Shown in pieces: positions 6,667-25,199 of a DNA stretch of 64,000 nt. Made by a program: the position numbers and the translations under genes. The stretch lies in contig JBMNFW010000001.1 of NCBI GenBank assembly GCA_050949525.1, positions 65,078-129,077 on the forward strand. The letters are read 5' to 3'. Source of the DNA: Patescibacteria group bacterium. GTDB taxonomy: Bacteria; Patescibacteriota; Patescibacteriia; Patescibacteriales; UBA12465. The notes beneath the pieces are model-generated. The model was not told the origin of the DNA, made no database searches, and worked only from the letters and a program-made list of their open reading frames with translations. Position 1 is the stretch's first letter. Every line of letters starts with the position of its first letter.

Positions 6667-7416
6667 ATGAAAAACAAAATTATTATTTTAGCGGCTGGGA
6701 AAGGAAAACGAATGATGTCAGATTTACCTAAGCCTCTTATTCCGGTAAATAATCGAGCTATGATTAAGTATTTACTTGATTCTATTATAGCTTCCAAAAT
6801 TGATTCTAAGCCGGTTGTAGTAGTGTCTCCGATTGGAGAAGAAATAATGAAAGAAAGTCTTAAGGAATATAATTTAAATTATGCTATACAAACTGAGGCT
6901 TTAGGAACTGGGCATGCCGTATCAGTTACAGAGAACTTAATTTCTGAAGATGTTGAAAATGTTTTAGTTCTTTATGGCGATCAACCTTTTATTAGCCAAA
7001 AATCAATGCAGAAAATTTTAGATATTCATCAATCAGAGCTTTCAATGTTGACAGTAAGCTTGGAAGATTTTAATGATTGGAGACAAGGATTCTTTCATTG
7101 GGGGAGAATTTTGAGGGGGGAAAAAGGAGAAATTAGGGAAATAGTTGAGTTTAAAGATGCTAGTGAAGAACAAAAAAAGATTACCGAACTTAATCCAGCT
7201 ATTTTTTGTTTTAATCGGAATTGGCTATTTGATAATATTAAAAATTTAAAGAATAATAATAATCAAAAAGAATATTATTTAACTGATTTAGTTAAAATAG
7301 CCTTTAATCAAGGGGTAAATATAGATAGTTGTCCAGTGGCTGCTTCTGAAGTTTTAGGGATTAATAGTCCAGAGGAGTTAGAGATAGTAGAAAAAATAAT
7401 CAAAAATGAAAAATAA
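6667..7416 (+). CDS. sugar-1-phosphate nucleotidyltransferase (GlmU N-terminal-like)
   Basis: 249 aa. N-terminal ILAAGKGKRM nucleotidyltransferase signature. Adjacent to the phosphohexomutase, so plausibly an NDP-sugar/UDP-GlcNAc route. Confidence 0.7.
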   Translation: MKNKIIILAAGKGKRMMSDLPKPLIPVNNRAMIKYLLDSIIASKIDSKPVVVVSPIGEEIMKESLKEYNLNYAIQTEALGTGHAVSVTENLISEDVENVLVLYGDQPFISQKSMQKILDIHQSELSMLTVSLEDFNDWRQGFFHWGRILRGEKGEIREIVEFKDASEEQKKITELNPAIFCFNRNWLFDNIKNLKNNNNQKEYYLTDLVKIAFNQGVNIDSCPVAASEVLGINSPEELEIVEKIIKNEK

Positions 7417-7660
7417 TTTAAAAATAATTATCTTAATAGTGGTCTTTATTTTTTTAGTAGTTTTTACTTTTCTTTTTTTTAATCGTGATAAAAAAACTAT
7501 TCAAGAAATGCCTTATGTGTCAGAAATATTTGAGTTTATTACTATTAGCTCTGAAAGAGTTGGGCAAATAAATTTTAATATTTTTCAAAAAAAAGATAAG
7601 AATAACGAGAATCTTTTACCGAGTGATTTTTCAGATTGGGAAAACTCCCTTTTAGAATAA
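7406..7660 (+). CDS. small membrane protein (hypothetical)
   Basis: 84 aa with one N-terminal TM helix (IIILIVVFIFLVVFTFLFF). No recognisable motif. Sits immediately upstream of the giant surface-protein gene. Confidence 0.35.
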   Translation: MKNNLKIIILIVVFIFLVVFTFLFFNRDKKTIQEMPYVSEIFEFITISSERVGQINFNIFQKKDKNNENLLPSDFSDWENSLLE

Positions 7661-7727: not shown

Positions 7728-10700
7728 ATGATTAGTAAAAAAAATAAAACTCGTCGATTAGTTTTTTTGATTTATTTTCTTTTAGTTTCGGTTTTTCTTT
7801 TAGGAAAAATAGCTTTAGCTACCAGTAGTCCGAGTGTGGTTGATACCACTTTTGGTCTTGATTATGTTGAGGGTACTAATCCTGAAATGAGTAATGAGGA
7901 GGGTATTAAATTGGGGGCTAAAGATCCTCGCACTATAGCTGTTAAAATTATTAATGTTTCTCTTAGTGTTTTAGGTATAATTGCGGTTATTATTGTTATT
8001 TATGGTGGTTTTGTTTGGATGACAGCTGAAGGAAATGAGGATAAAATCTCTAAAGCTCGGGGTATATTAAAATCAGGTGTTATTGGCCTGATTATTATTT
8101 TAGCGGCTTGGGGTATAGTTACTTTAGTGTTTAATAAGTTAGGGGTTAGTACGGGTGTTAGTACTGGGGATCATTCCACTTCAACTAATAATAATATTGT
8201 TCCTCCTGGTGGTCCTGGAAGTAATTGCGGTAGTTATTATGGTAATCAATGTACTCCAGATAACACTGATTGTAATGATGGATTAGTTTGTAATAATAAT
8301 TGTATTTGTGTTCCAGATGAAACTGGTACACCATGTTCTGGTGGTGATGTTTGTACTAGCAATAATCCAGAGTGTGGTAGTAGTTTCTTTTGTGATTTTG
8401 AGGCAGATTGTACTTGTCAATTATTGGGCTACTCTAATTTAAACGAACCTTGTAGTGATGGAAATACTTGTAATGACTCTAGTAATACTTGTAATCCTCA
8501 TTATGGCTTATCTTGTGATCCTGATGCTTGTATTTGTGTGGGGGAGCCGATTATAACTGGTATTAGTCCGCAAGGAGGTTTTTGTGATAATGATATTAAT
8601 CAAGCTTGCTTAAATGATACTGCTTGTGATGGGGGTTCATGTAATATTAGTCAAGCTAATGGGGCTTTAGGAAATTTGATTACTGTTTATGGTTATAATT
8701 TTGATCACTATGATCAAGATTATTCCAAAGTTAATTTAATAAAAAGGGATGGAGAAGAAGAGATTATTATTACCGCTCAAGTTCCTAGCGAACTAAATGC
8801 TGCCTGTGGTAATTCTTGGAATAATCAACAGATAGTAGTTGCTATCCCTACTAGCACAGCACTTAGCGTTGAAGATGAGATAGAAATAGAGGTTGTTACT
8901 CGATTAGAAAAAACCGATCGGAGTCAAGATGAAAATGGTCCACTATTAGAGTCTTTGTTAATAAATAATTTAGAACGTCCGGGTTTATGTAGCGTGAAAA
9001 AGGTGGGAGATGATAATACTGAGGGGGAGTTAGAAGGGCAAATGAATGATGAACTAGAATATCATGGTTTAAATTTAATTAATAGCAAAGCTTATTTTGG
9101 TAACTCTGTTAGTAATATTTTAGGACTTTCACCTAATAATTTTTCTGATAATGATATAAAAGGAAGGGCTCGAGTTCCTAATTTATCAACTGGAAAAACT
9201 AGTACTTTTGCCAAGAAGGAAATATTACCTAGTAATTTTATGGATTTTAGAAAGATGGCTGAAGCTCCTCAAGGTCCTTCTATTTCTTTCTTTGATCCAG
9301 TGGAAGGATCTTCTGGTCAGTATGTCACTATTTATGGTAGTGGTTTTGGTAGTTTTAAAGGTATGAGTGCGGTTTATTTGGTCGGTGATAATCAAGGTTC
9401 TATTGAAGCTGATTATAATTTTCCGCCAGTTTGTTTACAATCAGTTTGGTCGGACGATAAAATTTTAATAAAAATTCCAGATAATATTGATGATGGTGAT
9501 TATTATTTAGTGCTTCAAATAGGTACTTGGAACGAAATTATATCTAGCGATACTTTTAAGGTTTCAGCTGATATTGCTTTAGGTCCTAGTTTGTGTAAAA
9601 TTAGTCCTAGTTCTGGTCCTCATAGCACCACTTTAGTTAATATGTGGGGAGAGTATTTTGGTACTCAAGCTAGAGCTGTGTTTAGTTATCAGAAATTCAC
9701 TGATTCAGTTACACCTGAAATAGAGGGAGGAGCTGATAAAATTAAAGTTTTTGTTCCTGCCGAATCAATTTCTGGTCCAGTTAAAGTTGAGAGAGATAAT
9801 ATTAGTGGCAATAGTTTAAATTTTTTAATTGGTGCTTGTTTATCTGATGATGATTGTTCTGGGTCTAATACTTGTTGTGGGGCTAATACTGTTTTAGCTG
9901 GATCTTGTGTTTCTGATAGCAATGCTTGTAATGAAGGAGCTCCTAGTAATTCTTTATTTAAATGGAGCTTTGATACTGGAGTAGCTGATGCTAGTCCATC
10001 CTTCACCGGAGATGAGCCTTATAGTTGTGCTAGCTATACTTATTGTCCTGAGACACCTTATGTTTGTCCTAATTCTCCTGGAGTTTGTTCTAAATATCTT
10101 GGTGGTCAATCAGTATTAATTTCTGGTACTTGTGATGATACTTGTCAGAGTATTTGCCCTGGTTCTATATATCGATCTGATTTAAATCGATGTGTAAAAG
10201 ATATAGGTAATTGTCATTTGGATAAAAAAATAGAGTATTCATTAGGAGAAGGTTTGGGAACCACAACTAAAATAGCAGTTTGTAAAAATTATGATATTAA
10301 TGGGACAAGAAAATCTTTTTTTGAGATTTCAGTTAGTACTAGTTGTCCTAATGGTTGGAGCATGATTTCTCCTGGTCGTTGTGTTAATGTTCCTAATGTT
10401 TATAGTGAAGAATATAGTTATACATGTGGTGCTTGTCCTTCAGGTTTAAGTTGTCAAAATTTGTATGGAAATGTTGAATTAGGTATATGTGCTTCTGGTC
10501 CTTTATGTTCTGGAGATTATTCTTGTATTAATGGTCAATGTCAAAAAGAAGATCTAGGTGATTGTCAGTGTTGTTGTGATAAGGATCAAAATAGTACTGA
10601 TGCTGATAGCTATGGTAATCCAGCTTGTTGTACTCCATTGATTTGTGATTATAAATGCGGTGTTAGCGCTAATGAGCCGACTAATAATGAAAATTATGGA

Positions 10701-13700
10701 TTATGTTCTGGTTGTAAGTTATCGGATTCAGCTGGTATTTTTGATCGAGATAATGCTTGTAATTGTTTAGGAACTTATGGTAAATTTTGCGAGGTTAGTA
10801 ATATTTATCCTGAGGGAGCTTGCTTAGATTGTTCCGCTATTCAAAGTGAAATTAATTGTAAAGAGCATGGTAATTCTTGTTGTTGGGATAAGAAAAATGA
10901 ATCTTGTCGTGGTATAAAGTCTGATAGTATTCCTTGGGATGAAGAAGATGCTAATTGGGGTTATTGCCCTTATTATTCTTGTCGAGAGGATCAACCAAAT
11001 CTTTGTAATCTTTCTTCACCATCTAGTGATAGTAATGATAATTATCTCTATTCTTCTACTAGCTCTTGTGCCATAGCTTGTCAAAAAAATTGTAATAAGT
11101 ATTTAACTTTTGATCATTGTAAAAATACTGATAATTGTTGTTGGGATGAAGAATCTAATCTTTGTTTGGAGGGAGCTGCTTTTAGTGATGAGGCAAATCT
11201 AGGAAAGTGTAAATATTATCAATGTTCTAATCCTGGAAGTGATTCACCTTGTACAGTAACTGATCAATCTAGTGATGGTGATAATCCTAATTATTTAAAA
11301 GAAAATATTTGTACACTTCAATGTAAAAACCAATCTCTAGGTTTTGGTAATTATTGCGCTTCTATTACTCCTAATTATACTAATCTTAATCCAGTTTGTG
11401 ATTCTAACGTTTGTAATTTATTTTCTTGTTTAACTAGTGAAGGAGCGGTAGCTTCTAACTCTACTGATTGTGGAGTTTGTTGTTGTAATCCAAATAGCTC
11501 AAATGATCAATGTACACAGATTAGTAGCAGCTTAACTTGTTTACCAAATAAAGGTTTGTGTACTGGATCAAAACGTGGTTTATGTTGTGGTTGTAGTACT
11601 GATGCTAGCTGTGTTAATCCTGGTTTATCGCCTCTCTTTGTTGGTTGTGGTCTCGATACTTGTTGTCGAGCTCGACCTAAAATAGAAACAAATATTAATA
11701 AATTTGCTGAGCTGGATGTTTTGCCGGAGCATGAAGATCATAATGTTTGTCGAAATGCCATGATTGAAATAAATTTTGATCAAAGAATAGATATTAATAG
11801 TTTGAGTAATAATATATTATTATTAGAGGAAACCAGCGGTGCTTGTTCTCCCGGTACATATTTTATTGGTCAAAGTAATTTTAAAAAAGATACTATTTTA
11901 GCTCGAATTTTAAAACCTATTTTAAAAATTTTTAAGAAAGATGCTTTAGCTCAAATCGGGGGAATACCAATAGATCTGCCATTTTTACCGATATCTGTAT
12001 TGAATATGCCATCATCAGTTAAAAATTATTGCGCTGTTTTAGGTAGTGTTGATTTTGAGCATTTAAGTAATAATAAAACTCGAGTTTTCTTTAAACCCAA
12101 TAATCTTCTTAAGGCCGGAACTAAATATTTTGTCGTGGTAAAAGGAGATGTTAATTTAAATAGTCAAAGTGGAATTAAAAGTTTGCACGGAATTGGTATG
12201 AGAGGTTCTGGGTATTATAGAATTACTGCGCCTTCTACTTTTTCTGGTTGGAGATCTAATGTTTTATTTAATAATGTTCGATATCCAAATTCATATATCT
12301 GGAGATTTATTACTCAATCAGTAAATTCTCCAGGAGAAGGAATTTGTACAATTGATCATGTAGAAGTGTCTCCTGATTCTTATCTTTTTCAAACATTTGA
12401 AAATGATCTTAATGAGAATGATGAAGATTCTAACCATTCCTCTTTTGATTCTGTTAAAGATCGGGATAAAGTATATGTAGCCAAAGCTTATTCCTCTGAT
12501 CATCAAAGACTACAACCTACCACTGGATATAGTTGGACTTGGGATTGGAATATTGATAATCAAGATGTTTTAAATTTCTATGATGTATTAGGTGAGGAAA
12601 GTAGTATTACTGGTTTTAGTTTAGATGGTGATAAGCGATTAATTGGAGTTAAGGGTGGTGTAACTAATGGAGAAACTTGGGTTTCTGCTACTACCGTTTT
12701 GTCTTCTCCTTATACTACTGATGGAAATAATGTTTCTAAATCAGTTCCTGCTTATGTTATGAATTGTAAAAATCCTTGGCCAGCGTTTAATGGTGAGACT
12801 TGGTCTCCATGGAAAGACACTCCTCAAAGTGGTATAGCTGGATATAATCATGAATTTTATTATTGTCGGGATGCCGGTGAGGATGGTACCGCTGATGATT
12901 TACCAGCATTTTTAAGTGATTTAGCTATCGTTAAGGGTAATAGCTTAATTAAGGTTTGCAGTAATGCCCCTACTCAGATTTGTGAAAATAGTAATGATTG
13001 TTCTAATGGTGGAATATGTTTAAGTAGTTTTTTAAAGGAAATATATTTCTTTAAAGAAAGAATTCCTCATTTTATTAAAAATATTTCCGCTAGTGATAAT
13101 GGTATGGGGGGCAGTATAAAGCTTTCCTGGGAATCAGATAAAAGTTTAGTTCATCGGTATAAGATTTATTATAATCCAGTAGCTAGTAATAATAATCAAG
13201 AGAAAATAATAAATCCTGAAACTGAATGTACTGTAGGAGGTAGTAAATATACTTGTTCAATTGATATTAATAATTTAACTAATGGGCAACAATATGCTTT
13301 CCGAGTCACAGCTCTTAGTGAGAATCAGGCTGAGACTAATTTTTCTGCCACTGTTTTTGCCACTCCTACAGTTGGAGTCTTAGAGGCGGAGGGTCTCAAT
13401 ATACCAACTAATTTAGTTGCTCAGATTGAATCATATGATGAAAAAAAGGTTAAATTATCTTGGACTGCCCCAACTAATTATCAAGTAGCTAATTATAAAG
13501 TGTATCGCGGAACTTCTCAAGGTGTTTATGCTTCTTCTTTTTTAACTAATAGTACTGAAACTGAAATTATAGTTATTTTACCATCTGGATCTGGGACTAA
13601 GCATTATTTAGCAGTCAGTACTATTGGGGTTAATAGTGTAGAGAGTGATAAATCTAATATGGTGCTAGTTGATTTTGGCGCCTTACCATTATTACCATAA
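7728..13700 (+). CDS. giant (1990 aa) cysteine-rich extracellular protein with N-terminal VirB2/TrbC-like pilin hairpin, Cys-rich modules and two C-terminal fibronectin-III-like domains
   Basis: N-terminal signal/TM (LVFLIYFLLVSVFLLGKIALA). Then two hydrophobic helices, IAVKIINVSLSVLGIIAVIIVIYGGFVWMTA and GVIGLIIILAAWGIVTLVF, separated by the charged loop EGNEDKISKARGILKS; this is the topology of TrbC/VirB2-type pilins. ~1850 aa follow with about 115 Cys by manual count, in repeated 25-30 aa modules (e.g. CTPDNTDCNDGLVCNNNCICV, CSGGDVCTSNNPECGSSFFCDFEADCTC, CSDGNTCNDSSNTCNPHYGLSCDPDACICV). Ig-like stretches (ITGISPQGG...ITVYGYNF). Two FN3-like domains near the C-terminus (KLSWESD...YAFRVTALSEN; KLSWTAPTNYQVANYKVYRG). 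Confidence 0.85.
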   Translation: MISKKNKTRRLVFLIYFLLVSVFLLGKIALATSSPSVVDTTFGLDYVEGTNPEMSNEEGIKLGAKDPRTIAVKIINVSLSVLGIIAVIIVIYGGFVWMTAEGNEDKISKARGILKSGVIGLIIILAAWGIVTLVFNKLGVSTGVSTGDHSTSTNNNIVPPGGPGSNCGSYYGNQCTPDNTDCNDGLVCNNNCICVPDETGTPCSGGDVCTSNNPECGSSFFCDFEADCTCQLLGYSNLNEPCSDGNTCNDSSNTCNPHYGLSCDPDACICVGEPIITGISPQGGFCDNDINQACLNDTACDGGSCNISQANGALGNLITVYGYNFDHYDQDYSKVNLIKRDGEEEIIITAQVPSELNAACGNSWNNQQIVVAIPTSTALSVEDEIEIEVVTRLEKTDRSQDENGPLLESLLINNLERPGLCSVKKVGDDNTEGELEGQMNDELEYHGLNLINSKAYFGNSVSNILGLSPNNFSDNDIKGRARVPNLSTGKTSTFAKKEILPSNFMDFRKMAEAPQGPSISFFDPVEGSSGQYVTIYGSGFGSFKGMSAVYLVGDNQGSIEADYNFPPVCLQSVWSDDKILIKIPDNIDDGDYYLVLQIGTWNEIISSDTFKVSADIALGPSLCKISPSSGPHSTTLVNMWGEYFGTQARAVFSYQKFTDSVTPEIEGGADKIKVFVPAESISGPVKVERDNISGNSLNFLIGACLSDDDCSGSNTCCGANTVLAGSCVSDSNACNEGAPSNSLFKWSFDTGVADASPSFTGDEPYSCASYTYCPETPYVCPNSPGVCSKYLGGQSVLISGTCDDTCQSICPGSIYRSDLNRCVKDIGNCHLDKKIEYSLGEGLGTTTKIAVCKNYDINGTRKSFFEISVSTSCPNGWSMISPGRCVNVPNVYSEEYSYTCGACPSGLSCQNLYGNVELGICASGPLCSGDYSCINGQCQKEDLGDCQCCCDKDQNSTDADSYGNPACCTPLICDYKCGVSANEPTNNENYGLCSGCKLSDSAGIFDRDNACNCLGTYGKFCEVSNIYPEGACLDCSAIQSEINCKEHGNSCCWDKKNESCRGIKSDSIPWDEEDANWGYCPYYSCREDQPNLCNLSSPSSDSNDNYLYSSTSSCAIACQKNCNKYLTFDHCKNTDNCCWDEESNLCLEGAAFSDEANLGKCKYYQCSNPGSDSPCTVTDQSSDGDNPNYLKENICTLQCKNQSLGFGNYCASITPNYTNLNPVCDSNVCNLFSCLTSEGAVASNSTDCGVCCCNPNSSNDQCTQISSSLTCLPNKGLCTGSKRGLCCGCSTDASCVNPGLSPLFVGCGLDTCCRARPKIETNINKFAELDVLPEHEDHNVCRNAMIEINFDQRIDINSLSNNILLLEETSGACSPGTYFIGQSNFKKDTILARILKPILKIFKKDALAQIGGIPIDLPFLPISVLNMPSSVKNYCAVLGSVDFEHLSNNKTRVFFKPNNLLKAGTKYFVVVKGDVNLNSQSGIKSLHGIGMRGSGYYRITAPSTFSGWRSNVLFNNVRYPNSYIWRFITQSVNSPGEGICTIDHVEVSPDSYLFQTFENDLNENDEDSNHSSFDSVKDRDKVYVAKAYSSDHQRLQPTTGYSWTWDWNIDNQDVLNFYDVLGEESSITGFSLDGDKRLIGVKGGVTNGETWVSATTVLSSPYTTDGNNVSKSVPAYVMNCKNPWPAFNGETWSPWKDTPQSGIAGYNHEFYYCRDAGEDGTADDLPAFLSDLAIVKGNSLIKVCSNAPTQICENSNDCSNGGICLSSFLKEIYFFKERIPHFIKNISASDNGMGGSIKLSWESDKSLVHRYKIYYNPVASNNNQEKIINPETECTVGGSKYTCSIDINNLTNGQQYAFRVTALSENQAETNFSATVFATPTVGVLEAEGLNIPTNLVAQIESYDEKKVKLSWTAPTNYQVANYKVYRGTSQGVYASSFLTNSTETEIIVILPSGSGTKHYLAVSTIGVNSVESDKSNMVLVDFGALPLLP

Positions 13701-13734: not shown

Positions 13735-16700
13735 ATGAAGAAAAAAAATATTTTTATAAGAAGAGTTTTTTTAATAACTTTGTTTTTCGGTATTCTCTTT
13801 TTAATATCTACTCAAGTATCACGAGCTTTTTCTGGGGTGGGTAATTTGGGTAATCAGGAACAGGTTGCTTCTAATACAGGTAGTGGTAATTATCAGACTA
13901 ATCCCCCCATTCTTAGTTCTCAAGAATCTTTTCAATCGGGGGAATCTGACGCTATTGCGGTTAGAGTTATTCCTAATCCCAATCATCTCAGTGCTCAGAA
14001 ATGGTATAAATCTCAAGGATTTTCTGGTTCGCCCCAATCTTTGATAGTTGATGGTTATCAAGCAGTTCGAGATGGAAGAACAGTTTATGTTTCGGCTACT
14101 AATGTGGTGGGAAATAATATTTATACTAATATTTATTTAATTTCCTATGATCAAGAAGCTGATCATCAAACGGTAGATATTTTTGGTAAAATCTTAAGTA
14201 ATTGGAAATTTAATACTAATATTAATGCTAATGTTGGTTCTTGTGTTATTTCTAATCGAAGTTGTTACTCTGATAGTGATTGCTCTGAAGGTTATGTTTG
14301 TGGAAGTCTTGGTAATGCTCAAGCTAATAAATGTATTTTAAAAGAAGCTGATGAAGATTATACTAGTTTAGAAAGTTCTCCACGTTGTTTACTTGATTCT
14401 GATTGTCCAGGAAAATTATTTTGCACTAGTCTAAAATCCAGAATTATTAGAGACTTAGATCGTTTAGAAAAAATAATTCTTTTAAAAGAAAAGATTGAAC
14501 AGTATAATAATAAGAATGGGCGATATCCAACTTTATTATCCGGAACTTATTTACCTCATGTTGCTATTTCCACTTGGCCTTCTTGGCAAAGTTCTTTTTT
14601 AGGGCAAATTGGGGCTAGTGGAGTTGTTGATCCAATTAATAGTTTAGGATCTTGTGCTGATGAGAATAAAAAGTTTGATCTCAATACTTGTTGGCGAGAA
14701 GAAGGTAATTATTTTTTTACTCCTAATAATAATTATAATAATTTTACTTTGCCGCCATATAGCTATGTTATCGCTTATACTTCTAATCCTAATGGCACTA
14801 ATTATAATCTTTGTGCGGTAATGGAAACAGTTTTAGGTGGAGATAATTATACAATTTCTGGTGGACCCTTATCTGATTTAACTTGTTCTCTTGGTTCTGG
14901 TGTAGGAAATACTGGATTCGTTGGACATAATACTAATCAAGCTCCCTATGTTTCAGAATATATGTTAGAGGGAGAGGCCGGACAAGAATTTAATGGTTAT
15001 ATTAAAGCCATTGATCCTGAGGGGCATTCTATTACTTGGGGTACTAGTATCCATACAGCACCTATGTTAATAACTAATTTTAGTTCTTGGACACCAGCCA
15101 ATAAGCCTCAACTTATTAATACTAACAATCCATTACAAAAAAGATTATGGGCTGAAAAAGCTGGGTCTCCGGGGGTGTATAAAATTAAGGTTAATTTAGC
15201 TGATAATGTTGGTTCTTCTAGTTCTGAAGTTTTGAATATTGTTATTAATCCTTCTAATCCCCAGATAATAGCTGGTGATGTTAATTATGTTTTAGGTTCA
15301 GGTTCAATTCAGGGTGAGATGTTGATTAAGTCTAAAACTCCTCTATCCAATGGAGATGTTAAAATTTTTAGAAGCAATAATGAAAGTAATAAAGTTTCTT
15401 TAAATATTATAGAAAGTGGATCACCGCTTTTTTATATCCCCCCCTTTTTACCGCCCCTTGAAGGTGGATTACGGGCTAGTTTAACAAAATTATCTGATCA
15501 AGATTATTCTCTTAAAATTTTTGGAACATTAAATCATAATGTTTTTCCTGCCGGATCTTATCCCTATACCATTGAGGTTACTACTCCATATGGATCTAGT
15601 ACTAAACAGTTTTCTATTAATGTTGCAGCTGAGAATTTAGTTTTGGATTTAAGTAATTGTCCTACTATTGCTCCTCTTGGTTCATATTATGTGTGTCCAG
15701 TAAGTGTGTTTGGTTCCAATGATGGAGTTAATTTTTCTGTTGAATCAAGCTTACCTCGAGGACTTTCATATAATAGTTCGGAAAAGAAAATTAAAGGATA
15801 TATTTTAGATTCTTTAGATCAGTATCCTATCAATGTTTCAGCTCATAATAATTTTGGGGCTAATACTTCTAAAACATTTACTTTAAGTACTTTTAGTGAT
15901 TGTGAAAATAGTCTAGTTAAGCATGAAGGAGGTCCTTGGAATTCTTCAGGAAGTACCAGAAATAATGGAGGTTATTATAAGACAGTGTTGATTGGTGGAC
16001 AATGTTGGTTAAAGGAAAATTTAAATATTGGAACGATGCTTATGTTGGGTAGTGAGCCTCATAATAATACTACTATTGAAAAACATTGTTTTGATGATAA
16101 TGAAATTTATTGTCAGAAACTTGGTGGAGTATATCAATGGGATGAAGCAATGGATTATTTCCATAACAATACACTTCAAGGTATTTGTCCTAATGGTTGG
16201 AGAGTGCCCACAGATAATGATTGGTATGTTTTAGAAAATTATTTAAAAGATCCTGGACAAGGTTGTAATGCTAATAGAGTAATGGGGTCAGAAGAGTGTT
16301 ATTCAACTGGGTTTAAGATTACAAAGAATCAAAAGTGTTGTGCTAATAATGATGATAATAATTGTACTAATTGGCCAGGAAATAATTCCTCTGGTTTTTC
16401 GGCCGTTTGTGCTCCTAGTATGAGTAGTGCTTGGTGGGGTTTTGATAATTTAAATACTGAGTGGACTGGCTGGTTAACATCAAGTTTATATGATAATGAT
16501 AATGTGCTTACTAGACACGTGTTTCATAATAATGGCTTAATTCAACGACAAAAGAAACCTAGAAATAGTGGGTTTTATGCGGTTCGGTGTGTTAAGGATG
16601 TTAAAGAGTGTCACAATAATTCTGATTGCGCTTATTTAGGAGGTGGATATACATGTAATAGTTATAATCTCTGTTCTTCAAATGTTATTAGTGGTGGAAC

Positions 16701-17091
16701 AGTTTCACCTGTTATTGTCCCTGGTACTATACCAACTGGTTCTGATGATAATAATACTCCAGGTACTATAACACCACCAAATGCAAGTACTGAGTTAGAA
16801 GCAACCACTGATACTCCCATAGTTACACCAACTGGTTCTGATGATAATAATATTCCGGGTACTATAACACCACCAAATGTGAGTACTGAACTAGGGACAA
16901 CCATTAATAAACCTACTGGTTCCGGAGATAATGTTTCTCCTGATGATAGTACTATAGCTCCACCAAATATTCATACTGGAGCTGTTGGTATAATAGAGGG
17001 CGGTACTACTAACTCTGGTTCTGGTAGCAATACTTCTCCAGGGTTAAATACCGGAACATTATTTACTGGCGGAATGACAGGTAAGCCTTAG
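13735..17091 (+). CDS. large secreted Cys-containing protein with Fibrobacter-succinogenes-major-paralogous (FISUMP) domain and C-terminal Pro/Thr-rich tandem repeats
   Basis: Start placed at MKKKNIFIRRVFLITLFFGILFLISTQVSRA (signal peptide); tracked ORF begins 13669. FISUMP-like block GGYYKTVLIGGQCWLKENLNIG...CQKLGGVYQWDEAMDY...ICPNGWRVPTDNDWYVLENYL...GFYAVRCVKD. Tail of imperfect 28-32 aa repeats PTGSDDNNTPGTITPPNASTEL... Confidence 0.8.
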   Translation: MKKKNIFIRRVFLITLFFGILFLISTQVSRAFSGVGNLGNQEQVASNTGSGNYQTNPPILSSQESFQSGESDAIAVRVIPNPNHLSAQKWYKSQGFSGSPQSLIVDGYQAVRDGRTVYVSATNVVGNNIYTNIYLISYDQEADHQTVDIFGKILSNWKFNTNINANVGSCVISNRSCYSDSDCSEGYVCGSLGNAQANKCILKEADEDYTSLESSPRCLLDSDCPGKLFCTSLKSRIIRDLDRLEKIILLKEKIEQYNNKNGRYPTLLSGTYLPHVAISTWPSWQSSFLGQIGASGVVDPINSLGSCADENKKFDLNTCWREEGNYFFTPNNNYNNFTLPPYSYVIAYTSNPNGTNYNLCAVMETVLGGDNYTISGGPLSDLTCSLGSGVGNTGFVGHNTNQAPYVSEYMLEGEAGQEFNGYIKAIDPEGHSITWGTSIHTAPMLITNFSSWTPANKPQLINTNNPLQKRLWAEKAGSPGVYKIKVNLADNVGSSSSEVLNIVINPSNPQIIAGDVNYVLGSGSIQGEMLIKSKTPLSNGDVKIFRSNNESNKVSLNIIESGSPLFYIPPFLPPLEGGLRASLTKLSDQDYSLKIFGTLNHNVFPAGSYPYTIEVTTPYGSSTKQFSINVAAENLVLDLSNCPTIAPLGSYYVCPVSVFGSNDGVNFSVESSLPRGLSYNSSEKKIKGYILDSLDQYPINVSAHNNFGANTSKTFTLSTFSDCENSLVKHEGGPWNSSGSTRNNGGYYKTVLIGGQCWLKENLNIGTMLMLGSEPHNNTTIEKHCFDDNEIYCQKLGGVYQWDEAMDYFHNNTLQGICPNGWRVPTDNDWYVLENYLKDPGQGCNANRVMGSEECYSTGFKITKNQKCCANNDDNNCTNWPGNNSSGFSAVCAPSMSSAWWGFDNLNTEWTGWLTSSLYDNDNVLTRHVFHNNGLIQRQKKPRNSGFYAVRCVKDVKECHNNSDCAYLGGGYTCNSYNLCSSNVISGGTVSPVIVPGTIPTGSDDNNTPGTITPPNASTELEATTDTPIVTPTGSDDNNIPGTITPPNVSTELGTTINKPTGSGDNVSPDDSTIAPPNIHTGAVGIIEGGTTNSGSGSNTSPGLNTGTLFTGGMTGKP
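16732..17010 (+). repeat. in-frame imperfect tandem repeat (96-nt, 84-nt, then a degenerate unit) encoding a Pro/Thr/Gly-rich linker
   Basis: ccaactggttctgatgataataatactccaggtactataacaccaccaaatgcaagtactgag... recurs at 16828 with a few substitutions. A further degenerate copy is at 16912. This repeat explains the spurious antisense ORF 16662..16904. Confidence 0.7.
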
Positions 17092-17153: not shown

Positions 17154-17927
17154 ATGTTTGAAGATTTACAAAACGATCCTAATAGCAAAGTTGATGATAT
17201 CTTTGCTGATTCTGATCGAGTGGAGGAGCCAAAACCAAGAGTAGCTCCTTCTAATATAGATAGGGGGCCGGCTCCTCAAGCTCCGGCAACTTTACCTGAT
17301 TTTGATGAAGATGATAGTAGTGGAAGATCTGGGAAAATAATCAAAAAATTCTTTTTAGTTATTGTTATTTTGTTAGTTATTTTTATTTTAGCTTATATTC
17401 TATATTCTAAAGTATTATTACCTCGAACTGTTAATCAAGGATCTGGTTTAGATAATAATATTCCTTTAATAGATAACGAGGTTAATATTCCGTCTAATGT
17501 TGTCGATGTGGATACTGATGAAGACGCATTAGATAGCTTAGTTCCAGTTATTGCCGATGAAGAAGATAGTCTTATAGCTACTAGTTCTGAGGAAAATATT
17601 TTAGAGGAGGAAGAAGTCGAAGAGGTTATAGCAGACAGTGATAATGATGGTTTAAGTGATGATGATGAGATTTATGTTTATGGTACCAATCCTTATATTA
17701 TTGATACTGATGGTGATGGTTTAAGTGATTTTGATGAAATAATGATATTTGGTACTGATCCTTTAAATCCTGATACCGATAATGATGGATTTTTAGATGG
17801 AGGTGAAGTTTTAGCTGGTTATAGTCCATTATCAGCTGAGCCTAAAAAGCTTGATTTAGATTCAATTTTAGATCAAGAGCTTTTTCAGGAAAAATATCCG
17901 GAATTATGGACTAAAATTACACAATAA
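17154..17927 (+). CDS. acidic single-pass membrane protein with thrombospondin-type-3-like (DxDxDG) calcium-binding repeats
   Basis: 257 aa; TM helix FFLVIVILLVIFILAYILY. Extracytoplasmic tail is very acidic, with three repeats DSDNDGLSDDDE / DTDGDGLSDFDE / DTDNDGFLDGGE, each preceded by GTNP/GTDPLNP. Confidence 0.7.
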   Translation: MFEDLQNDPNSKVDDIFADSDRVEEPKPRVAPSNIDRGPAPQAPATLPDFDEDDSSGRSGKIIKKFFLVIVILLVIFILAYILYSKVLLPRTVNQGSGLDNNIPLIDNEVNIPSNVVDVDTDEDALDSLVPVIADEEDSLIATSSEENILEEEEVEEVIADSDNDGLSDDDEIYVYGTNPYIIDTDGDGLSDFDEIMIFGTDPLNPDTDNDGFLDGGEVLAGYSPLSAEPKKLDLDSILDQELFQEKYPELWTKITQ

Positions 17928-17932
17928 TAATC

Positions 17933-18949
17933 ATGTTGAAGAGGAAAAAAACAAAAACTGAAGATACTAAGGCTAATGTTCCTGAGCCGGTTTTTAAGGT
18001 TCATCGAATGCCTAAGGGTTATAAAAGTGGTCGATTTGAGCCTTCGGCTTTTTCTAGTAATCCGAGCAAGGAAAAAAGTTCTGGTGGGTCTAATAAGAAG
18101 GTGGGATTACTTATTATTTCTCTAGGCTCAATAATTGTTGTTTTTCTAATTTATATAATTATTTCTTATCTTAGCCAACCTGATTTCTCTTTGGGTGGAA
18201 TTTTTAAATTTAAATCATCTAATACTGCAGTGAAACCATCTCCAGTAGTTTTGAATGAGAAAGAACCAGCTATTTCATTAATTAACGAAGAAGAGCCTGT
18301 TGTAATAGAAGAAGAGGAGGATTTAGAATTAGATTTAGATATCGAAGAGGATTTAATAATAGATGAAGAAAATAATATGGAGGAAGAAGTAGAGGTGAGT
18401 GTTTCTTTTTTAGATAGTGATGGTGATGGCTTGAGTGATCAGGAGGAAGTATTAATTGGTACTAATCCTTTAGAGTCTGACAGTGATGGTGATGGTTATG
18501 ATGATTTTACTGAAGTTTCTAATCTTTATAATCCCTTAGGTTCGGGATTATTAAAAGATAATCGCAATATTCAGGAGTTACAAGATGATAATTTGGTTTA
18601 CTCAGTTTTATATCCTTCCTCTTTAGAGCCTAGTATTTCTAATGATGGTCATAATACTCTTTTCTTTTTGGATGATAATTCTTTTATTCAAATATTATTA
18701 GAGGAAAATGAAGGGCAACAGAATATTGCCTCTTGGTATGGGTCTCGATTTTTTAGCTTTATTGATAACTCAGAAATAATAGAGAAAGATGCTTGGTCAG
18801 GATTTTATACTTCTGATGGTTCATCTTTTTATTTAGGTGATCATGATCGAAAATATGTATTTACTATATTGTATAATTTTCCGGAAAATCAAAATCCTTT
18901 ATATATGAATATTTTTAAGATGATGATTAATTCGTTTCAATTGAAATAA
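17933..18949 (+). CDS. paralogous acidic single-pass membrane protein with TSP3-like calcium-binding repeats and extra C-terminal domain
   Basis: 338 aa; TM helix VGLLIISLGSIIVVFLIYIIISYL. Acidic E/D-rich stretch, then DSDGDGLSDQEEVLIGTNPLESDSDGDGYDDFTEV. A ~160 aa C-terminal domain of unknown function. Same architecture as the preceding gene. Confidence 0.7.
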   Translation: MLKRKKTKTEDTKANVPEPVFKVHRMPKGYKSGRFEPSAFSSNPSKEKSSGGSNKKVGLLIISLGSIIVVFLIYIIISYLSQPDFSLGGIFKFKSSNTAVKPSPVVLNEKEPAISLINEEEPVVIEEEEDLELDLDIEEDLIIDEENNMEEEVEVSVSFLDSDGDGLSDQEEVLIGTNPLESDSDGDGYDDFTEVSNLYNPLGSGLLKDNRNIQELQDDNLVYSVLYPSSLEPSISNDGHNTLFFLDDNSFIQILLEENEGQQNIASWYGSRFFSFIDNSEIIEKDAWSGFYTSDGSSFYLGDHDRKYVFTILYNFPENQNPLYMNIFKMMINSFQLK

Positions 18950-18960
18950 GTTTAAGTAAC

Positions 18961-18993
18961 AAAAAATAGAGAGGTGAAACTCTCTATTTTTTT
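18961..18993. terminator. bidirectional rho-independent terminator between convergent genes
   Basis: A-run, 7-bp stem tagagag/ctctcta with 6-nt loop, then T7 run. Serves the + strand locus ending at 18949 and clpP on the - strand. Confidence 0.6.
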
Positions 18994-19702: not shown

Positions 19703-21619
19703 ATGTCTAAGTTGAAATCGAATCTTTTTAAACAAAAAAGAAATGGCTTGATTTTCGCTTCAATTTTAATCTTTTTTGTTTTTGTGGCCTTAAAAGGAGC
19801 TGATATTTACTATAATCAGTTTTCTGATTATTTAGCTAAGAAAACTAATGATGTTATTATTTTACCTAAAATTAAGGAATCTCCCTTTCGTTTAGGACTA
19901 GATCTTCAGGGTGGAGCTCAATTAGTTTATCAAGCTGATGTGTCTCAAATTCCGGATCTTGATAAAGATGATGTTTTAGATGGAGTTCGAGATGTTATTG
20001 AAAAACGAGTTAATGCTTTTGGGGTTAGTGAGCCGATAATTCAGGTTAATAAGACTGTTGATGGTGAATATCGAATTATTGTTGAGTTAGCTGGAGTGAA
20101 GAGTGTTGAAGAGGCTATAAAGGAGATTGGGGAAACGCCTAAATTAGAGTTTAAAGAACAAGATTTAGATTCAGCTAGTTTGTCAGAAGAAGATTTAGCC
20201 TTAAAAGAAGAATATAATAATTCTTTAAAGAAAAAGGCTGAAGAGATTTATGAAAAGCTTTTAAATGGAGAAGATTTTTCATCTTTAGCTATTGCTAATA
20301 ATAGTCCAATTGTGCTTGATCCTAGTCAAGGAATTGGGGCTGAAAATGATGGTGATTTAGGTTGGATTAGCTCTAGTGACGATGCGGTTTTATATGGGAT
20401 TTTAGAAAATATTGAAATTGGTAAATTTTCTGAAATTATTGAAACTGAAGCCGATTATAATATTTTTAAGGTGGAAGATAAAAGATCATCGGTTGAAGGA
20501 GTTTTAGGTTCAGCTGAAGGAGAGGCTGAGTATAAGGTAAGGCGAATAGTTTTAAATAAGATTAGTGATCGTGATCTTTTAGAGTTTTCTGATAATTGGA
20601 AAAATACTGAATTAACTGGAAGAAATTTAAAGAAAGCGGTTTTGCAGTTTAATCCTAATACTAATGCTCCGGAAGTATCTTTAGAATTTGATGATGAAGG
20701 CGCTCAATTATTTGGTGATATTACTGAGAGAAATATTGGAAGACCAGTAGCTATTTATTTAGATGATTATGCTATTAGTGTTCCAACTGTTAATGAAAGA
20801 ATACCAGATGGTCGAGCTGTTATTTCAGGTCGTTTTAGTATCGCTGAGGCTAAAGAATTAATTCAAAGATTAAAAGCTGGAGCTTTACCAGTTCCAATTG
20901 AGTTAATAAATCAAAAAACAGTTGGTGCTAGTTTAGGAAGTCAGTCTATTCAAGATAGTTTAAAAGCTGGTATTATTGGTCTGATCTTAATCGCTCTTTT
21001 TATGATTATAGTTTATCGTTTACCAGGACTTTTATCAGTTTTCTCTTTAGTTATATATGGCTTTACTGTTTTGATTATTTTTAAATCTTTACCAGTTATT
21101 ACGGCCCTAATTATCGCTGTTTTCTTTGTGGTCATGATTTTTATAAGCTTTAATGAATTAAAAATATTGGATTTATCAATGATAGTTTTATTCCTTGTTA
21201 TTGGTATTGTTCTTTTTGTTTATAGTTTAGGTTCGGTTACCTTAACTTTAGCTGGTATTGCTGGTTTAATACTTTCAATTGGTATGGCTGTGGATGCTAA
21301 TGTTTTAATTTTTGAAAGGATGAAAGAAGAAATTCGCCAAGGTCGATCTTTAAAAAGTTCCATTGACGAGGGCATTCGTCGTTCTTGGCCTTCAATTCGC
21401 GATGGAAATATCTCTACTTTATTAACTTGTTTAGTACTAATGACTTTTGGTACCGGAGTTTTAAAAGGTTTTGGAACCACTCTTTTTATTGGGGTTTCAA
21501 TCTCTATGTTTGGTGCTATTGTTACTACTAGAGTTTTCTTAAACAAGTTTTTAGGTAAGAGGGTTGAAAAATGTCGATTTCTTTTAGGATTTAAAGTGAA
21601 ATCAGAAGAAAATAAATAA
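19703..21619 (+). CDS. secD: protein translocase subunit SecD, carrying an inserted parvulin-like (PpiC-type) PPIase-like domain in the first periplasmic region
   Basis: N-terminal TM. SecD P1 base LGLDLQGGAQLVYQAD...ELAGVKSVEEAIKEIGETPKLEFK. Then ~130 aa containing GDLGWISSSDDAVLYGILENIEIGKFSEIIETEADYNIFKVEDKR, which resembles the parvulin core (GGDLGWF...GYHIIKV). Canonical P1 head follows (LTGRNLKKAVLQFNP...GRPVAIYLDDYAISVPTV...GRFSIAEAKELIQRLKAGALPVP), then the six-TM C-terminal region. Confidence 0.9.
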   Translation: MSKLKSNLFKQKRNGLIFASILIFFVFVALKGADIYYNQFSDYLAKKTNDVIILPKIKESPFRLGLDLQGGAQLVYQADVSQIPDLDKDDVLDGVRDVIEKRVNAFGVSEPIIQVNKTVDGEYRIIVELAGVKSVEEAIKEIGETPKLEFKEQDLDSASLSEEDLALKEEYNNSLKKKAEEIYEKLLNGEDFSSLAIANNSPIVLDPSQGIGAENDGDLGWISSSDDAVLYGILENIEIGKFSEIIETEADYNIFKVEDKRSSVEGVLGSAEGEAEYKVRRIVLNKISDRDLLEFSDNWKNTELTGRNLKKAVLQFNPNTNAPEVSLEFDDEGAQLFGDITERNIGRPVAIYLDDYAISVPTVNERIPDGRAVISGRFSIAEAKELIQRLKAGALPVPIELINQKTVGASLGSQSIQDSLKAGIIGLILIALFMIIVYRLPGLLSVFSLVIYGFTVLIIFKSLPVITALIIAVFFVVMIFISFNELKILDLSMIVLFLVIGIVLFVYSLGSVTLTLAGIAGLILSIGMAVDANVLIFERMKEEIRQGRSLKSSIDEGIRRSWPSIRDGNISTLLTCLVLMTFGTGVLKGFGTTLFIGVSISMFGAIVTTRVFLNKFLGKRVEKCRFLLGFKVKSEENK

Positions 21620-24437: not shown

Positions 24438-25199
24438 ATGATAGTTATTTTTTTTATTTTGGGTTTAATAATTGGTAGTTTTTTAAATTGTTTGATTTGG
24501 CGGGTTTATAAAGGAGAAAGTATGTGGGGTTTTTCTCATTGTTTATCTTGTCAAAAAACTATTAAGTGGTATGACAATATTCCGGTGTTGAGTTTTTTTA
24601 TATTAAGGGGAAAATGTCGGTTTTGTCAGGCTAAAATTCCTTGGTATTATCCAGTGGTGGAATTGGTAACTGGACTTTTGTTTGCTGGTTCTTTTTATTA
24701 TCATGCTTATGTTTTAGATTTTAATTTATTTTATTTAATATTTTTTCTGTTAGTAATTTCTTTTTTAATTATATTTTTTGTTTTCGATTTACGCTGGTTT
24801 TTGGTTCCGGTAAATTTATTAATTGGAGGAGCGGTTTTGATTTTTTTCTTCCAATTATATTTTAATGTCTCTGTTTTAAACATATTGATTTCGGTTTTTT
24901 TAGGAGCGGCTTTTTTTGCTCTTCAGTTTTTTATTAGTCGAGGAAAATGGATTGGGGAGGGTGATATATGGTTAGGAGGCTTTTGGGGATTAGTTTTTGC
25001 TAAACCTTTTTTAGTGTTGTTTTTTATTCTTTTAACTTATATTATTGGTGGTTTAGTCTCAATTATTCTTATCGTTTCTGGTTACAAAAAACTAGGGGAG
25101 AAAATTCCTTTAGGAGTTTTTATGTCTTTAGCCGCTTTAATAGTCTTATTTTTTGGTGAACCTTTGCTTTCTTGGTATTTAGGTCTCTTTCTTTTTTAA
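24438..25199 (+). CDS. prepilin peptidase (A24 family, PilD-like)
   Basis: 253 aa. N-terminal tetracysteine Zn motif CLSCQKTIKWYDNIPVLSFFILRGKCRFCQAKIPWYYPVVE. Polytopic membrane domain with conserved acidic residues (FDLRW..., GEGDIWLGG). Confidence 0.8.
   Translation: MIVIFFILGLIIGSFLNCLIWRVYKGESMWGFSHCLSCQKTIKWYDNIPVLSFFILRGKCRFCQAKIPWYYPVVELVTGLLFAGSFYYHAYVLDFNLFYLIFFLLVISFLIIFFVFDLRWFLVPVNLLIGGAVLIFFFQLYFNVSVLNILISVFLGAAFFALQFFISRGKWIGEGDIWLGGFWGLVFAKPFLVLFFILLTYIIGGLVSIILIVSGYKKLGEKIPLGVFMSLAALIVLFFGEPLLSWYLGLFLF

Follow-up and report, generated by a model that had tools for sequence, protein, structure and literature searches.

The forward strand of the window (the whole 64-kb stretch of Patescibacteria DNA that was analysed) codes for a giant, disulfide-rich surface protein that begins as a pilin: residues 1 to ~141 make up a complete pilin of the VirB2-like family PF18895. 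The giant gene opens a conserved cassette of four surface-protein genes. The account to which we incline, tentatively and at somewhat less than even confidence, is that the giant is a fibrillar adhesin of a Falkowbacteria-type Patescibacterium, anchored by its pilin module and probably co-assembling with small pilins.

The giant gene and its cassette

The conserved order of the cassette is giant, ~1000-aa partner and two TSP3-repeat membrane proteins. Its features in the window are the following.

7728..13700, + strand: giant gene, coding a pilin-headed, Cys-rich surface protein of 1990 aa, ATG start
13735..17091, + strand: cassette gene 2 (d1140), coding a secreted protein of 1118 aa whose N-terminal region is conserved and which has a FISUMP/Fib_succ_major domain and a tail rich in T, P and G
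17154..17927, + strand: cassette gene 3 (d257), coding a single-pass membrane protein in which an acidic linker is combined with Ca-binding TSP3 repeats
17933..18949, + strand: cassette gene 4 (d338), coding a single-pass membrane protein that contains a TSP3 repeat and ends in a conserved domain
18961..18992, + strand: terminator-like hairpin (13 bp stem and T-run) between d338 and the convergent clpP

Residue numbers below (aa 1-1990) are those of the giant encoded in the window. The terminator-like hairpin is the probable end of the four-gene unit. The promoter scan gave fewer sites than shuffles and was not informative. A d1140 homolog is found directly 3' of the giant in 59 of 70 loci, and d338 accompanies d257 in 44 of 46. 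The FISUMP domain, which is carried here by the second gene, lies within the giant itself in some orthologs. Upstream of the giant at L003, at a distance of 8 kb, a Fib_succ_major domain is found fused to a type IV pilin (N_methyl).

The head sits at residues ~1-140 in every one of 88 homologous giants (1134-3471 aa, with identities as low as 25%), and relatives were found in no fewer than 79 species-level genomes of Falkowbacteria and allies. The pilin-headed giant design recurs across a whole bacterial class, in which the cassette is single-copy, syntenic, vertically inherited and placed beside ClpP, SecDF, Wzy-like and FtsA/FtsZ genes. The architecture that the original prediction had singled out as unusual is thus present but not exceptional, being standard in a conserved protein family of Falkowbacteria-type Patescibacteria. 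Judged by the 88 homologs with the same N-terminal head and by Cys conservation, the association of pilin head and giant ectodomain is far beyond chance. Most genomes code for two pilin-headed proteins in tandem, a medium-sized one preceding the giant, an arrangement reminiscent of minor-pilin sets. The family also includes "poly-pilins" with 2-17 domains.

A pilin module followed by a Cys-rich ectodomain

The amino-terminal region of the giant is organized as follows.

7728..7820, + strand: signal peptide (aa 1-31), with an n-region containing 5 K/R, an h-region and an ALA|TS cleavage motif
7821..7931, + strand: acidic N-terminus of the mature protein, ahead of the helices (aa 32-68), predicted to be disordered and to lie outside the cytoplasm
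7848..7931, + strand: mosaic (gene-conversion-like) tract of the head, 84 nt, shared with array gene 1
7932..8129, + strand: PF18895 T4SS_pilin match (aa 69-134), family motif YGGFxWMTxxGNE
Hairpin parts: transmembrane (TM) helix 1, aa 67-99; K/R-rich cytoplasmic loop, aa 100-116; TM helix 2, aa 104-142 (AlphaFold2, AF2)
8151..8225, + strand: low-complexity linker (aa 142-166, GVSTGVSTGDHSTSTNNNIVPPGGPGSN), which starts exactly at the end of stand-alone pilins (...ATG)

The PF18895 profile matches at 35.8 bits in the full protein and at 40.1-40.2 bits in the head alone (Pfam gathering threshold 26.6 bits), covering profile positions 7-71 of 71. This is the CPR-associated pilin-like family to which the original prediction had alluded. 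The other family proposed there for the hmmscan, TrbC/VirB2 (PF04956), gives a sub-threshold match only (17.0-17.2 bits, E 0.006-0.007, cutoff 27.9 bits); it is the second most frequent family among the 31 family members, 12 of which match it at E<=0.1 (best E 2.6e-4). A profile built from 30 small pilins recognizes 88/88 giants at residues ~1-140 (E 1e-16 to 1e-40). The consensus of giant heads (n=85) is virtually the same as that of stand-alone pilins, including YGGFxWMTxxGxEEK..AKK and GVIGLxIIL, and alignment with the 30 small pilins places the family-invariant residues G94, W97, M98, T99, G102 and G120 (window numbering) in the head. All giants extend onward from the small-pilin C-terminus. 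For the head by itself, the 30 nearest relatives are all stand-alone proteins of 98-153 aa; aa 32-141 are 57-63% identical to P0001-P0005, pilins of the arr1 type, which heads a six-pilin array in the same genome. The giant itself, with 1990 aa and no other pilin ORF in the window, is not a small stand-alone array pilin.

Relations beyond this family are faint. Against PDB sequences the head profile gave one spurious match only (E=0.79). Fold searches with the head return a generic helical hairpin, a non-discriminating fold, with no match to solved pilins. No homolog of the hairpin was found by tblastn in 72,556 plasmids, and NCBIfam yielded only a sub-threshold match to a Mycoplasma ICE pilin-like protein (26.9 bits, cutoff 40).

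Two hydrophobic helices separated by a short charged loop had been described after the signal segment. The quoted peptide IYGGFVWMTA-EGNEDKISKARGILKS-GVIGLIIILAAWGI is found in the giant, whose hydrophobic segments (7-35, 68-102 and 110-141 by hydropathy) agree with the AF2 helices (3-32, 67-99 and 104-142; hairpin pLDDT 80-90). The 17-aa loop of the hairpin has 4 K/R versus 0 in the 125 aa that follow TM helix 2. The Ala at -1 of the cleavage site is kept in at least 80% of giants, likewise in at least 80% of small pilins. Hydropathy, AF2 and charge distribution together predict a cleaved signal, an outer N-terminus, a two-helix hairpin with a cytoplasmic K/R-rich loop and an outer C-terminus, in line with the expected signal and two TM helices; the Cys-rich, Ig-like and fn3 part would therefore lie outside the cell, as had been proposed. 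The N-terminus is a classical type I signal (ALA|TS), with no Pfam match to the class III signal (N_methyl, PF07963). Note that a prepilin peptidase gene is present in the window at 24438-25199.

The ectodomain is composed of six regions.

8226..8537, + strand: three tandem 6-Cys modules (aa 167-270; 167-194, 203-230 and 242-270), defined by Cys spacing
8538..9827, + strand: IPT/TIG-like beta-sandwich region (aa 271-700), with a Pfam TIG match at 517-607 just below cutoff
9828..11687, + strand: central Cys-rich region (aa 701-1320), with 84 Cys, nearly all conserved, and no Pfam match
11688..12764, + strand: Big_5/Ig-like beta-sandwiches (aa 1321-1679), AF2 pLDDT mostly 80-95, with one disordered insertion
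12765..13067, + strand: module of high conservation that could be placed in no family (aa 1680-1780), NPWP...YYCRDAG, low AF2 confidence
13068..13697, + strand: two C-terminal fn3 domains (aa 1781-1990) at the membrane-distal end, from Pfam and AF2

The giant has exactly 115 Cys, none before residue 167, of which 108 are shared by 70% or more of 31 orthologs, against an identity of 35% for the remaining positions. This conservation points to an oxidised, extracytoplasmic fold. The recurring Cys modules that had been noticed correspond to the 6-Cys triplet and to a tandem pair of ~80-aa 9-Cys modules in the central region (1044-1118 and 1131-1199); they are seen via Cys spacing alone, self-BLAST for internal repeats giving nothing at E<0.01. 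The TIG match scores 19.8 bits (cutoff 20.9) and PF01833 is found in orthologs. The Ig-like stretches are recovered as a Pfam Big_5 match at 1331-1377 and AF2 beta-sandwiches, and the terminal FN3 pair as a Pfam fn3 match at 1784-1873 and two AF2 sandwiches. Invariant in the aa 1680-1780 module are NPWP (1682-1685), W.PW.D, YCRD (1712-1715) and DLP. The C-terminal third, all-beta in its AF2 model, resembles only fn3/Ig adhesion-type arrays in Foldseek, with no enzyme fold in AF2 or fold searches; matches of the giant are to fn3/Ig arrays and the Bap BSP domain. Tandem extracellular Ig-like, fn3 and TIG domains make the giant a fibrillar-adhesin stalk by composition, in which Pfam and NCBIfam detect no recognised adhesive (ligand-binding) domain.

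The original prediction holds as an observation in its ORF, 115 Cys, signal peptide, two-helix hairpin and C-terminal fn3 pair. It had named a single TM helix with no hairpin, the lack of any pilin-family hit and an intracellular Cys-rich region as outcomes that would contradict it; none of these was found and the tests it proposed came out favourably.

Adhesin, anchor or scaffold

As a pilin-anchored adhesin, the giant would be exported by Sec and its signal cleaved, leaving both ends of the hairpin facing outward, so that the ectodomain would project as a long, rigid stalk contacting the host cell. The head may be more than an anchor and enter the assembly pathway of the small pilins from the six-gene array, in which case the giant would be a rare minor, priming or tip subunit of a T4SS-type fibre. 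Structures of conjugative pili (F and T pilus) have the pilin termini on the outer fibre surface, hence a C-terminal fusion would be displayed outward. The monoderm envelope would lack an outer-membrane channel that could block such a bulky fusion. The giant would supply a VirB5/PrgB-like adhesin function, not found in the T4SSs of Patescibacteria. To our knowledge, nobody has demonstrated that PF18895 proteins form a fibre. It also speaks against the adhesin reading that the giant is inherited vertically, keeps its synteny and is conserved in structure, whereas adhesins that set host range typically evolve fast.

A possible, though doubtful, alternative is that the hairpin was co-opted as a static N-terminal two-TM anchor and that the giant remains in the cytoplasmic membrane and reaches through the wall as a fibrillar adhesin, with no part played by a T4SS or pilus. 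It would then be what LPXTG-anchored adhesins are elsewhere, in Patescibacterial form. The genomic context is in its favour. No VirB4, VirB6, VirB10 or VirB3 was found within the 64-kb window or within 10 kb of giant homologs, nor any T4SS machinery in the 10 kb around this lineage's pilin arrays, in a search that covered the window and 10-kb flanks and used no Patescibacterial VirB4 query sequence. A stand-alone pilin lies within 10 kb of the giant in 0 of 79 loci, which leaves the giants genetically unlinked to a pilus machine. Both d257 and d338, their neighbours in the cassette, are membrane-anchored in the ordinary way, a helical fibre would have little room for an appendage of 1850 aa, the "poly-pilins" have the look of polytopic membrane proteins more than of subunits of a fibre, and the fold of the head is that of a generic hairpin only.

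The conservation of the head argues against a static anchor. Across 50 loci the hairpin is 48% conserved versus 29-30% for the single-pass TM anchors of d257 and d338, which are true passive anchors of the same cassette (Wilcoxon p~5e-7), and versus 35% for the giant's own TIG-region stretch (aa 275-700). The most distant giants match through the head alone (36-58% identity). The whole pilin is kept with its motifs intact, namely signal peptide, mature N-terminus and loop. This high conservation could instead reflect shared membrane-insertion or processing constraints, not polymerisation. The exposed N-terminal tract has, in addition, been homogenised with an array pilin. It agrees at 78/84 nt (93%) with gene 1 of the six-pilin array, versus 142/225 (63%) for the hairpin, and it is 94% identical to L002; the flanks are at 47-64%. 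A 9-aa insertion in the tract (GTNPEMSNE) is absent from all other giants. The six-pilin array lies 47 kb from the giant in the same genome, and the giant gene there and that of the window are 99.93% identical. The intragenomic mosaic links the head to the array pilin, while gene conversion requires sequence similarity only, not common function.

A more far-reaching proposal, which we consider unlikely, is that the giants and their medium-sized pilin-headed predecessors are genuine T4SS-type pilus subunits and the first natural VirB2-adhesin fusions. They would act as a tip or priming subunit of a conjugative-type fibre, whose covalent 1850-aa adhesin replaces VirB5/PrgB and sets the host cell for docking, a solution feasible only because Patescibacteria are monoderm.

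It is improbable that the cassette is instead a constitutive surface layer or spacer of the envelope (S-layer-like or wall-spanning, Ca2+-stabilised via TSP3), in which the pilin head oligomerises the giant in the membrane and no host adhesin is involved. A single-copy, syntenic and vertical cassette beside housekeeping envelope and division genes would suit such a role, as would a near-invariant Cys framework, which suggests structural rather than diversifying selection, and a giant with no recognisable ligand-binding or enzymatic domain. However, a stalk of Ig/TIG/fn3 domains accompanied by FISUMP and TSP3 partners is a typical feature of adhesion systems, identity between orders drops to ~22% in the ectodomain but the head remains conserved, and lattice-forming domains are not in evidence. 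Finally, the joining of a small pilin gene to a downstream giant by sequencing or assembly error, frameshift or stop-codon loss, which the stand-alone state of the 30 closest relatives of the head might suggest, can be practically dismissed: the head/ectodomain junction is a single clean frame with abundant stops in both other frames, an identical protein was recovered on independent assemblies, the 88 fused homologs span at least 79 species, and the small pilins nearest to the head lie in six-gene arrays with no giant downstream.

Relation to known systems and significance

Stand-alone PF18895 pilins, such as those of Southlakia (PMC10633639, PMC12102498), share with the giant head the signal peptide, the hairpin, the motifs and the above-cutoff family match, and the arr1-type pilin also carries the recombination tract. 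They differ in their size of 98-180 aa, in ending after helix 2 and in forming arrays of 2-11 genes, often near virB4, whereas the giant has 1850 aa more and is single-copy in a separate conserved cassette away from arrays and virB4. Arrays of small PF18895 pilins are essential and lie inside the T4SS cluster of Southlakia epibionticum (PMC10633639); class ABY1 has virB4 loci, and adhesins such as PrgB were reported as not detected in Patescibacteria (PMC12102498).

VirB2, TrbC and TraA (PF04956) of diderm T4SSs resemble the giant head in their long cleaved signal, two hydrophobic helices and basic loop; however, the head is below the Pfam cutoff of this family and has no plasmid homolog by tblastn. 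Neither sequence searches nor fold searches, the latter unable to tell one helical hairpin from another, gave a match to solved pilins. We know of no natural VirB2 with a large C-terminal domain, and none was met in the literature searched. The logic of a fibre-subunit module joined to an adhesive part is shared with FimH/PapG of chaperone-usher systems and with minor type IV pilins that have large appended domains. Their folds and assembly pathways are unrelated to those of the giant, whose head has no class III (prepilin peptidase) signal or Ig-type pilin domain. The likeness to such rare-subunit tip adhesins is one of design logic, fibre incorporation of the giant being putative. Gram-positive fibrillar adhesins, including the T4SS-associated PrgB, likewise extend a long Ig-like/fn3 stalk from a monoderm surface, but they are anchored C-terminally by LPXTG/sortase while the giant is held N-terminally by its pilin hairpin. 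The giant further differs from them by its 115 Cys and by having no recognised adhesive head domain. No description of a pilin-headed giant was found in the searchable literature.

Patescibacteria are ultra-small, represent much of bacterial diversity and spend their lives attached to other microbes. Their unusual secretion-system pili lack a known adhesin for host attachment, a gap that the giant may fill. In the one genetically tractable species the T4SS and the VirB2-like pilin arrays are essential. The giant family, with its full pilin module, is a concrete candidate for the host-contact element, and it offers a test made by nature of whether pilins of the VirB2 type can bear cargo. Testable handles are provided by the four-gene cassette, by the pairing of medium and giant proteins in tandem and by the recombination tract common with an array pilin. 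Even if the hairpin is a static anchor, the giant defines a new N-terminal anchoring mode for surface proteins of monoderm bacteria.

Pilin module of the giant protein

The giant is the first gene of a conserved cassette, laid out in the window as follows:

7728..13700 (+), giant, a real ORF of 1990 aa
13735-17091 (+), d1140, a secreted protein of 1118 aa with a FISUMP/Fib_succ_major domain
17154..17927 (+), d257, a TSP3-repeat single-pass membrane protein
17933..18949 (+), d338, a TSP3-repeat single-pass membrane protein
18961-18992, a strong terminator-like hairpin closing the cassette unit

The hydrophobic segments of the giant are residues 7-35, 68-102 and 110-141, with no others by Kyte-Doolittle, and AlphaFold2, given an alignment of 31 sequences, places helices at 3-32, 67-99 and 104-142 (pLDDT 80-90 in the hairpin; residues 34-64 disordered), which bears out the signal and two-helix hydrophobic hairpin of the original prediction. 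Segment 7-35 is a classical signal peptide whose n-region has five K/R and whose ALA|TS site keeps the Ala at -1 in at least 80% of relatives. The hairpin loop carries four K/R in 17 aa and the 125 aa after TM2 hold 0 K/R and 16 D/E, a distribution that fits an N-out, loop-in, C-out topology.

Residues 69-134 match PF18895 (T4SS_pilin), the VirB2-like pilin family of Patescibacteria, with 35.8 bits, rising to 40.1 when the head (aa ~1-140) is searched alone (cutoff 26.6). Of the two families proposed originally, this CPR pilin family stood while PF04956 (TrbC/VirB2) did not, its match to the giant being 17 bits, under the 27.9 cutoff. PF04956 is the runner-up across the head alignment (12 of 31 members, best E 2.6e-4; every other family at most 6). 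NCBIfam gives the giant a sub-threshold match only, to a Mycoplasma ICE 'pilin-like conjugal transfer protein'. The head family is very large (77,617 cluster representatives at E<=1e-3 in an exhaustive profile search) and, in each of its motifs, the consensus of 85 giant heads is practically identical to the small-pilin consensus. The top ranks of this search are filled by 'poly-pilins' (P0119-P0227), in which one polypeptide carries 2-17 PF18895 domains in tandem (17 in the 1775 aa of P0140, 8 in the 820 aa of P0119, for example) and which may be genuine polyproteins or the product of run-on gene calling; no description of them was found in the PF18895 literature examined.

Fusion, conservation and mosaicism of the head

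All 30 proteins among the matches listed for a head-only search are stand-alone PF18895 pilins of 98-153 aa, so that an artefactual fusion had to be considered. The closest small pilins (P0001-P0005) stop just past helix 2 ('...ATGVGE'), at a point where the giant reads '...LGVSTGVSTG' and carries on; their genes are the first of six-gene pilin arrays, with no giant downstream. The full-length search yielded 88 giants (1134-3471 aa, identity 99% to about 25%), and the small-pilin HMM matches 88/88 at residues ~1-140. These fused homologs, the single clean reading frame of the head-ectodomain junction and the presence of the identical protein on several independent assemblies reject an artefact with near certainty: the proteins are truly fused, the fusion is old, and the pilin part is N-terminal in every case.

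The single-pass TM anchors of d257 and d338 provided an internal control at the same 50 loci. Identity to the window is 48% for the hairpin versus 29% and 30% for these anchors (Wilcoxon p~5e-7) and 35% for the TIG-region stretch of the giant ectodomain (aa 275-700). The most distant giants are recognisable through the head alone.

The head has a mosaic structure. Its aa 41-68 are encoded by a tract (window 7848-7931) that holds a 9-aa insertion missing from every other giant and is 94% identical in nucleotides (90% at third codon positions) to a stand-alone pilin gene (L002 39-467); in the flanking segments of the giant gene, identity to that pilin gene is 47-64% (binomial tail of the excess 3e-11). 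Cluster look-ups place pilin and giant in one genome (NCBI MGI6347594, 'pilin', and MGI6347656, 62 accessions apart), and both genes map 47 kb apart to one 742,870-bp JGI contig, whose giant gene is 99.93% identical to that of the window. Within that genome (pilin at L085 10001-10429) the identity is 78/84 nt in the tract versus 142/225 in the hairpin, and the tract is 93-94% identical to array gene 1 versus ~63% in the flanks. The segment is a recombination or gene-conversion tract, and its excess of identity within one genome shows that the giant and the first pilin of the array have recently been homogenised in their exposed, mature N-terminal part. Directly upstream of the array is a gene for an rve-family integrase (L085 8881-9954). 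The consensus shared with small pilins, the hairpin conservation above that of control anchors and the mosaic tract speak for a head that would be more than an anchor.

Ectodomain and cassette

The ~115 Cys estimated originally are exactly 115, none before residue 167, and the recurring modules are recovered as three tandem 6-Cys modules (aa 167-270) and a tandem pair of ~80-aa 9-Cys modules (aa 1044-1199). At 108/115 Cys positions at least 70% of 31 orthologs keep the residue, and mean identity is 0.96 at Cys versus 0.35 elsewhere, which indicates a disulfide-stapled extracytoplasmic fold. Pfam identifies fn3 (1784-1873), Big_5 (1331-1377) and, near threshold, TIG (517-607). The predicted model of the C-terminal 671 aa is all-beta, made up of sandwiches and two fn3 domains (mean pLDDT 77; mostly 80-95 within the domains); the two terminal FN3 domains and Ig-like stretches expected are thus found, TIG being the marginal part. 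This model matches only fn3/Ig arrays (adhesion receptors, titin, fibronectin, a biofilm-associated protein), with no enzyme fold among the matches. No family matches the strongly conserved, poorly modelled module at aa ~1680-1730 (NPWP...W.PW.D...YYCRDAG...DDLPA).

Ectodomain relatives are encoded at 79 loci of species-representative genomes. Named carriers are mostly Candidatus Falkowbacteria, with Komeilibacteria, Magasanikbacteria, Parcubacteria and Paceibacter, all of which we take to be GTDB class ABY1. Dozens of MAGs that clearly bear this Patescibacteria-specific cassette (L006-L080) are titled 'uncultured Gammaproteobacteria bacterium' in bulk submissions, a label that is probably a placeholder or an erroneous taxonomic assignment. 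A d1140 homolog lies directly 3' of the giant in 59/70 loci with room, d257 and d338 both follow in 44/46, and the order is kept even where ectodomain identity is just 21-27%. In most genomes (L011-L084) a second, medium-sized pilin-headed protein (546-982 aa) is encoded directly upstream of the giant, for example:

L014 3493-6175, medium pilin-headed protein, PF18895 + Big_5
L005 7305-9986, medium pilin-headed protein, PF18895 + Big_5

Neither the window nor the loci most closely related to it (L006-L010, L012, L064) have this protein, which they lost or never had.

The conserved N-terminal region of d1140 (aa ~71-330) belongs to no family and its C-terminal tail is repetitive and T/P/G-rich. 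In some orthologs its FISUMP/Fib_succ_major domain is part of the giant, and 8 kb upstream of an orthologous giant lies a gene for a type IV pilin (N_methyl) fused to a Fib_succ_major-like domain (L003 1330-2388), which places the same putative binding domain on two kinds of pilin-like carrier. A conserved 84-aa single-TM protein directly upstream of the giant (window 7406-7660; also L003, L006, L007, L064) has no family, its NCBIfam CedD match of 20.6 bits (cutoff 600) being meaningless.

The window is housekeeping chromosome, with SHMT, FolD, RecQ and PGM upstream of the giant and ClpP, SecDF, a Wzy-like protein, prepilin peptidase, FtsA/FtsZ, chaperones and ATP synthase downstream of the cassette. 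SecD (19703-21619) has an inserted PpiC-type peptidyl-prolyl isomerase (Rotamase) domain (aa 169-261), as in L003, an unusual architecture adjoining a cassette of very large exported proteins. This reduced genome also encodes a GluR0-like ligand-gated channel (60808-61806), whose 332 aa combine an SBP_bac_3/Lig_chan-Glu_bd periplasmic-binding fold with a Lig_chan, Ion_trans ion-channel pore. Every 2-kb bin of the window (~32% GC) shows positive GC skew and the + strand carries nearly all the genes, so the window lies wholly on one leading-strand replichore.

Proposed role

The giant unites a complete PF18895 module, a Sec-type signal, an outward C-terminus and a disulfide-rich Ig/fn3 stalk in a conserved surface-protein cassette. 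It would be a fibrillar adhesin whose pilin module may admit it to the pathway that assembles the small pilins, where it would serve as a minor, priming or tip subunit of a putative fibre. In conjugative pili (F and T pilus structures) the pilin termini are on the outer surface of the fibre and the loop faces the lumen, so a C-terminal fusion is topologically displayable; a monoderm has no outer-membrane channel to keep a bulky one out. Small pilin arrays are essential and belong to the T4SS cluster in Southlakia (PMC10633639), while in Patescibacteria 'No adhesins, such as PrgB, were detected' and virB4 loci are present in class ABY1 (PMC12102498), which together suggest the need for a host-contact element.

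Counting against co-assembly, the giants are genetically unlinked to T4SS genes and to pilin arrays: the 64-kb window encodes neither VirB4 nor VirB6 nor a coupling protein, and there is no stand-alone pilin within 10 kb of any giant. We hold co-assembly with small pilins to be tentative, somewhat short of an even chance. A head that only holds the giant in the membrane accounts for much of the data equally well, while the conservation and mosaicism of the head speak for more; it is only slightly less probable. A constitutive envelope scaffold seems unlikely.

The giants are visible in databases, with precomputed Pfam domains and NCBI names such as 'IPT/TIG domain-containing' and 'fibronectin type III domain-containing protein'. 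The PF18895 literature found treats small pilins and arrays only, and a full-text literature search returned no pilin-headed giants and no natural VirB2 with a large C-terminal domain. We know of no cultured Falkowbacteria. The giants are of interest to T4SS and CPR specialists, and make the question of what contacts the host testable.
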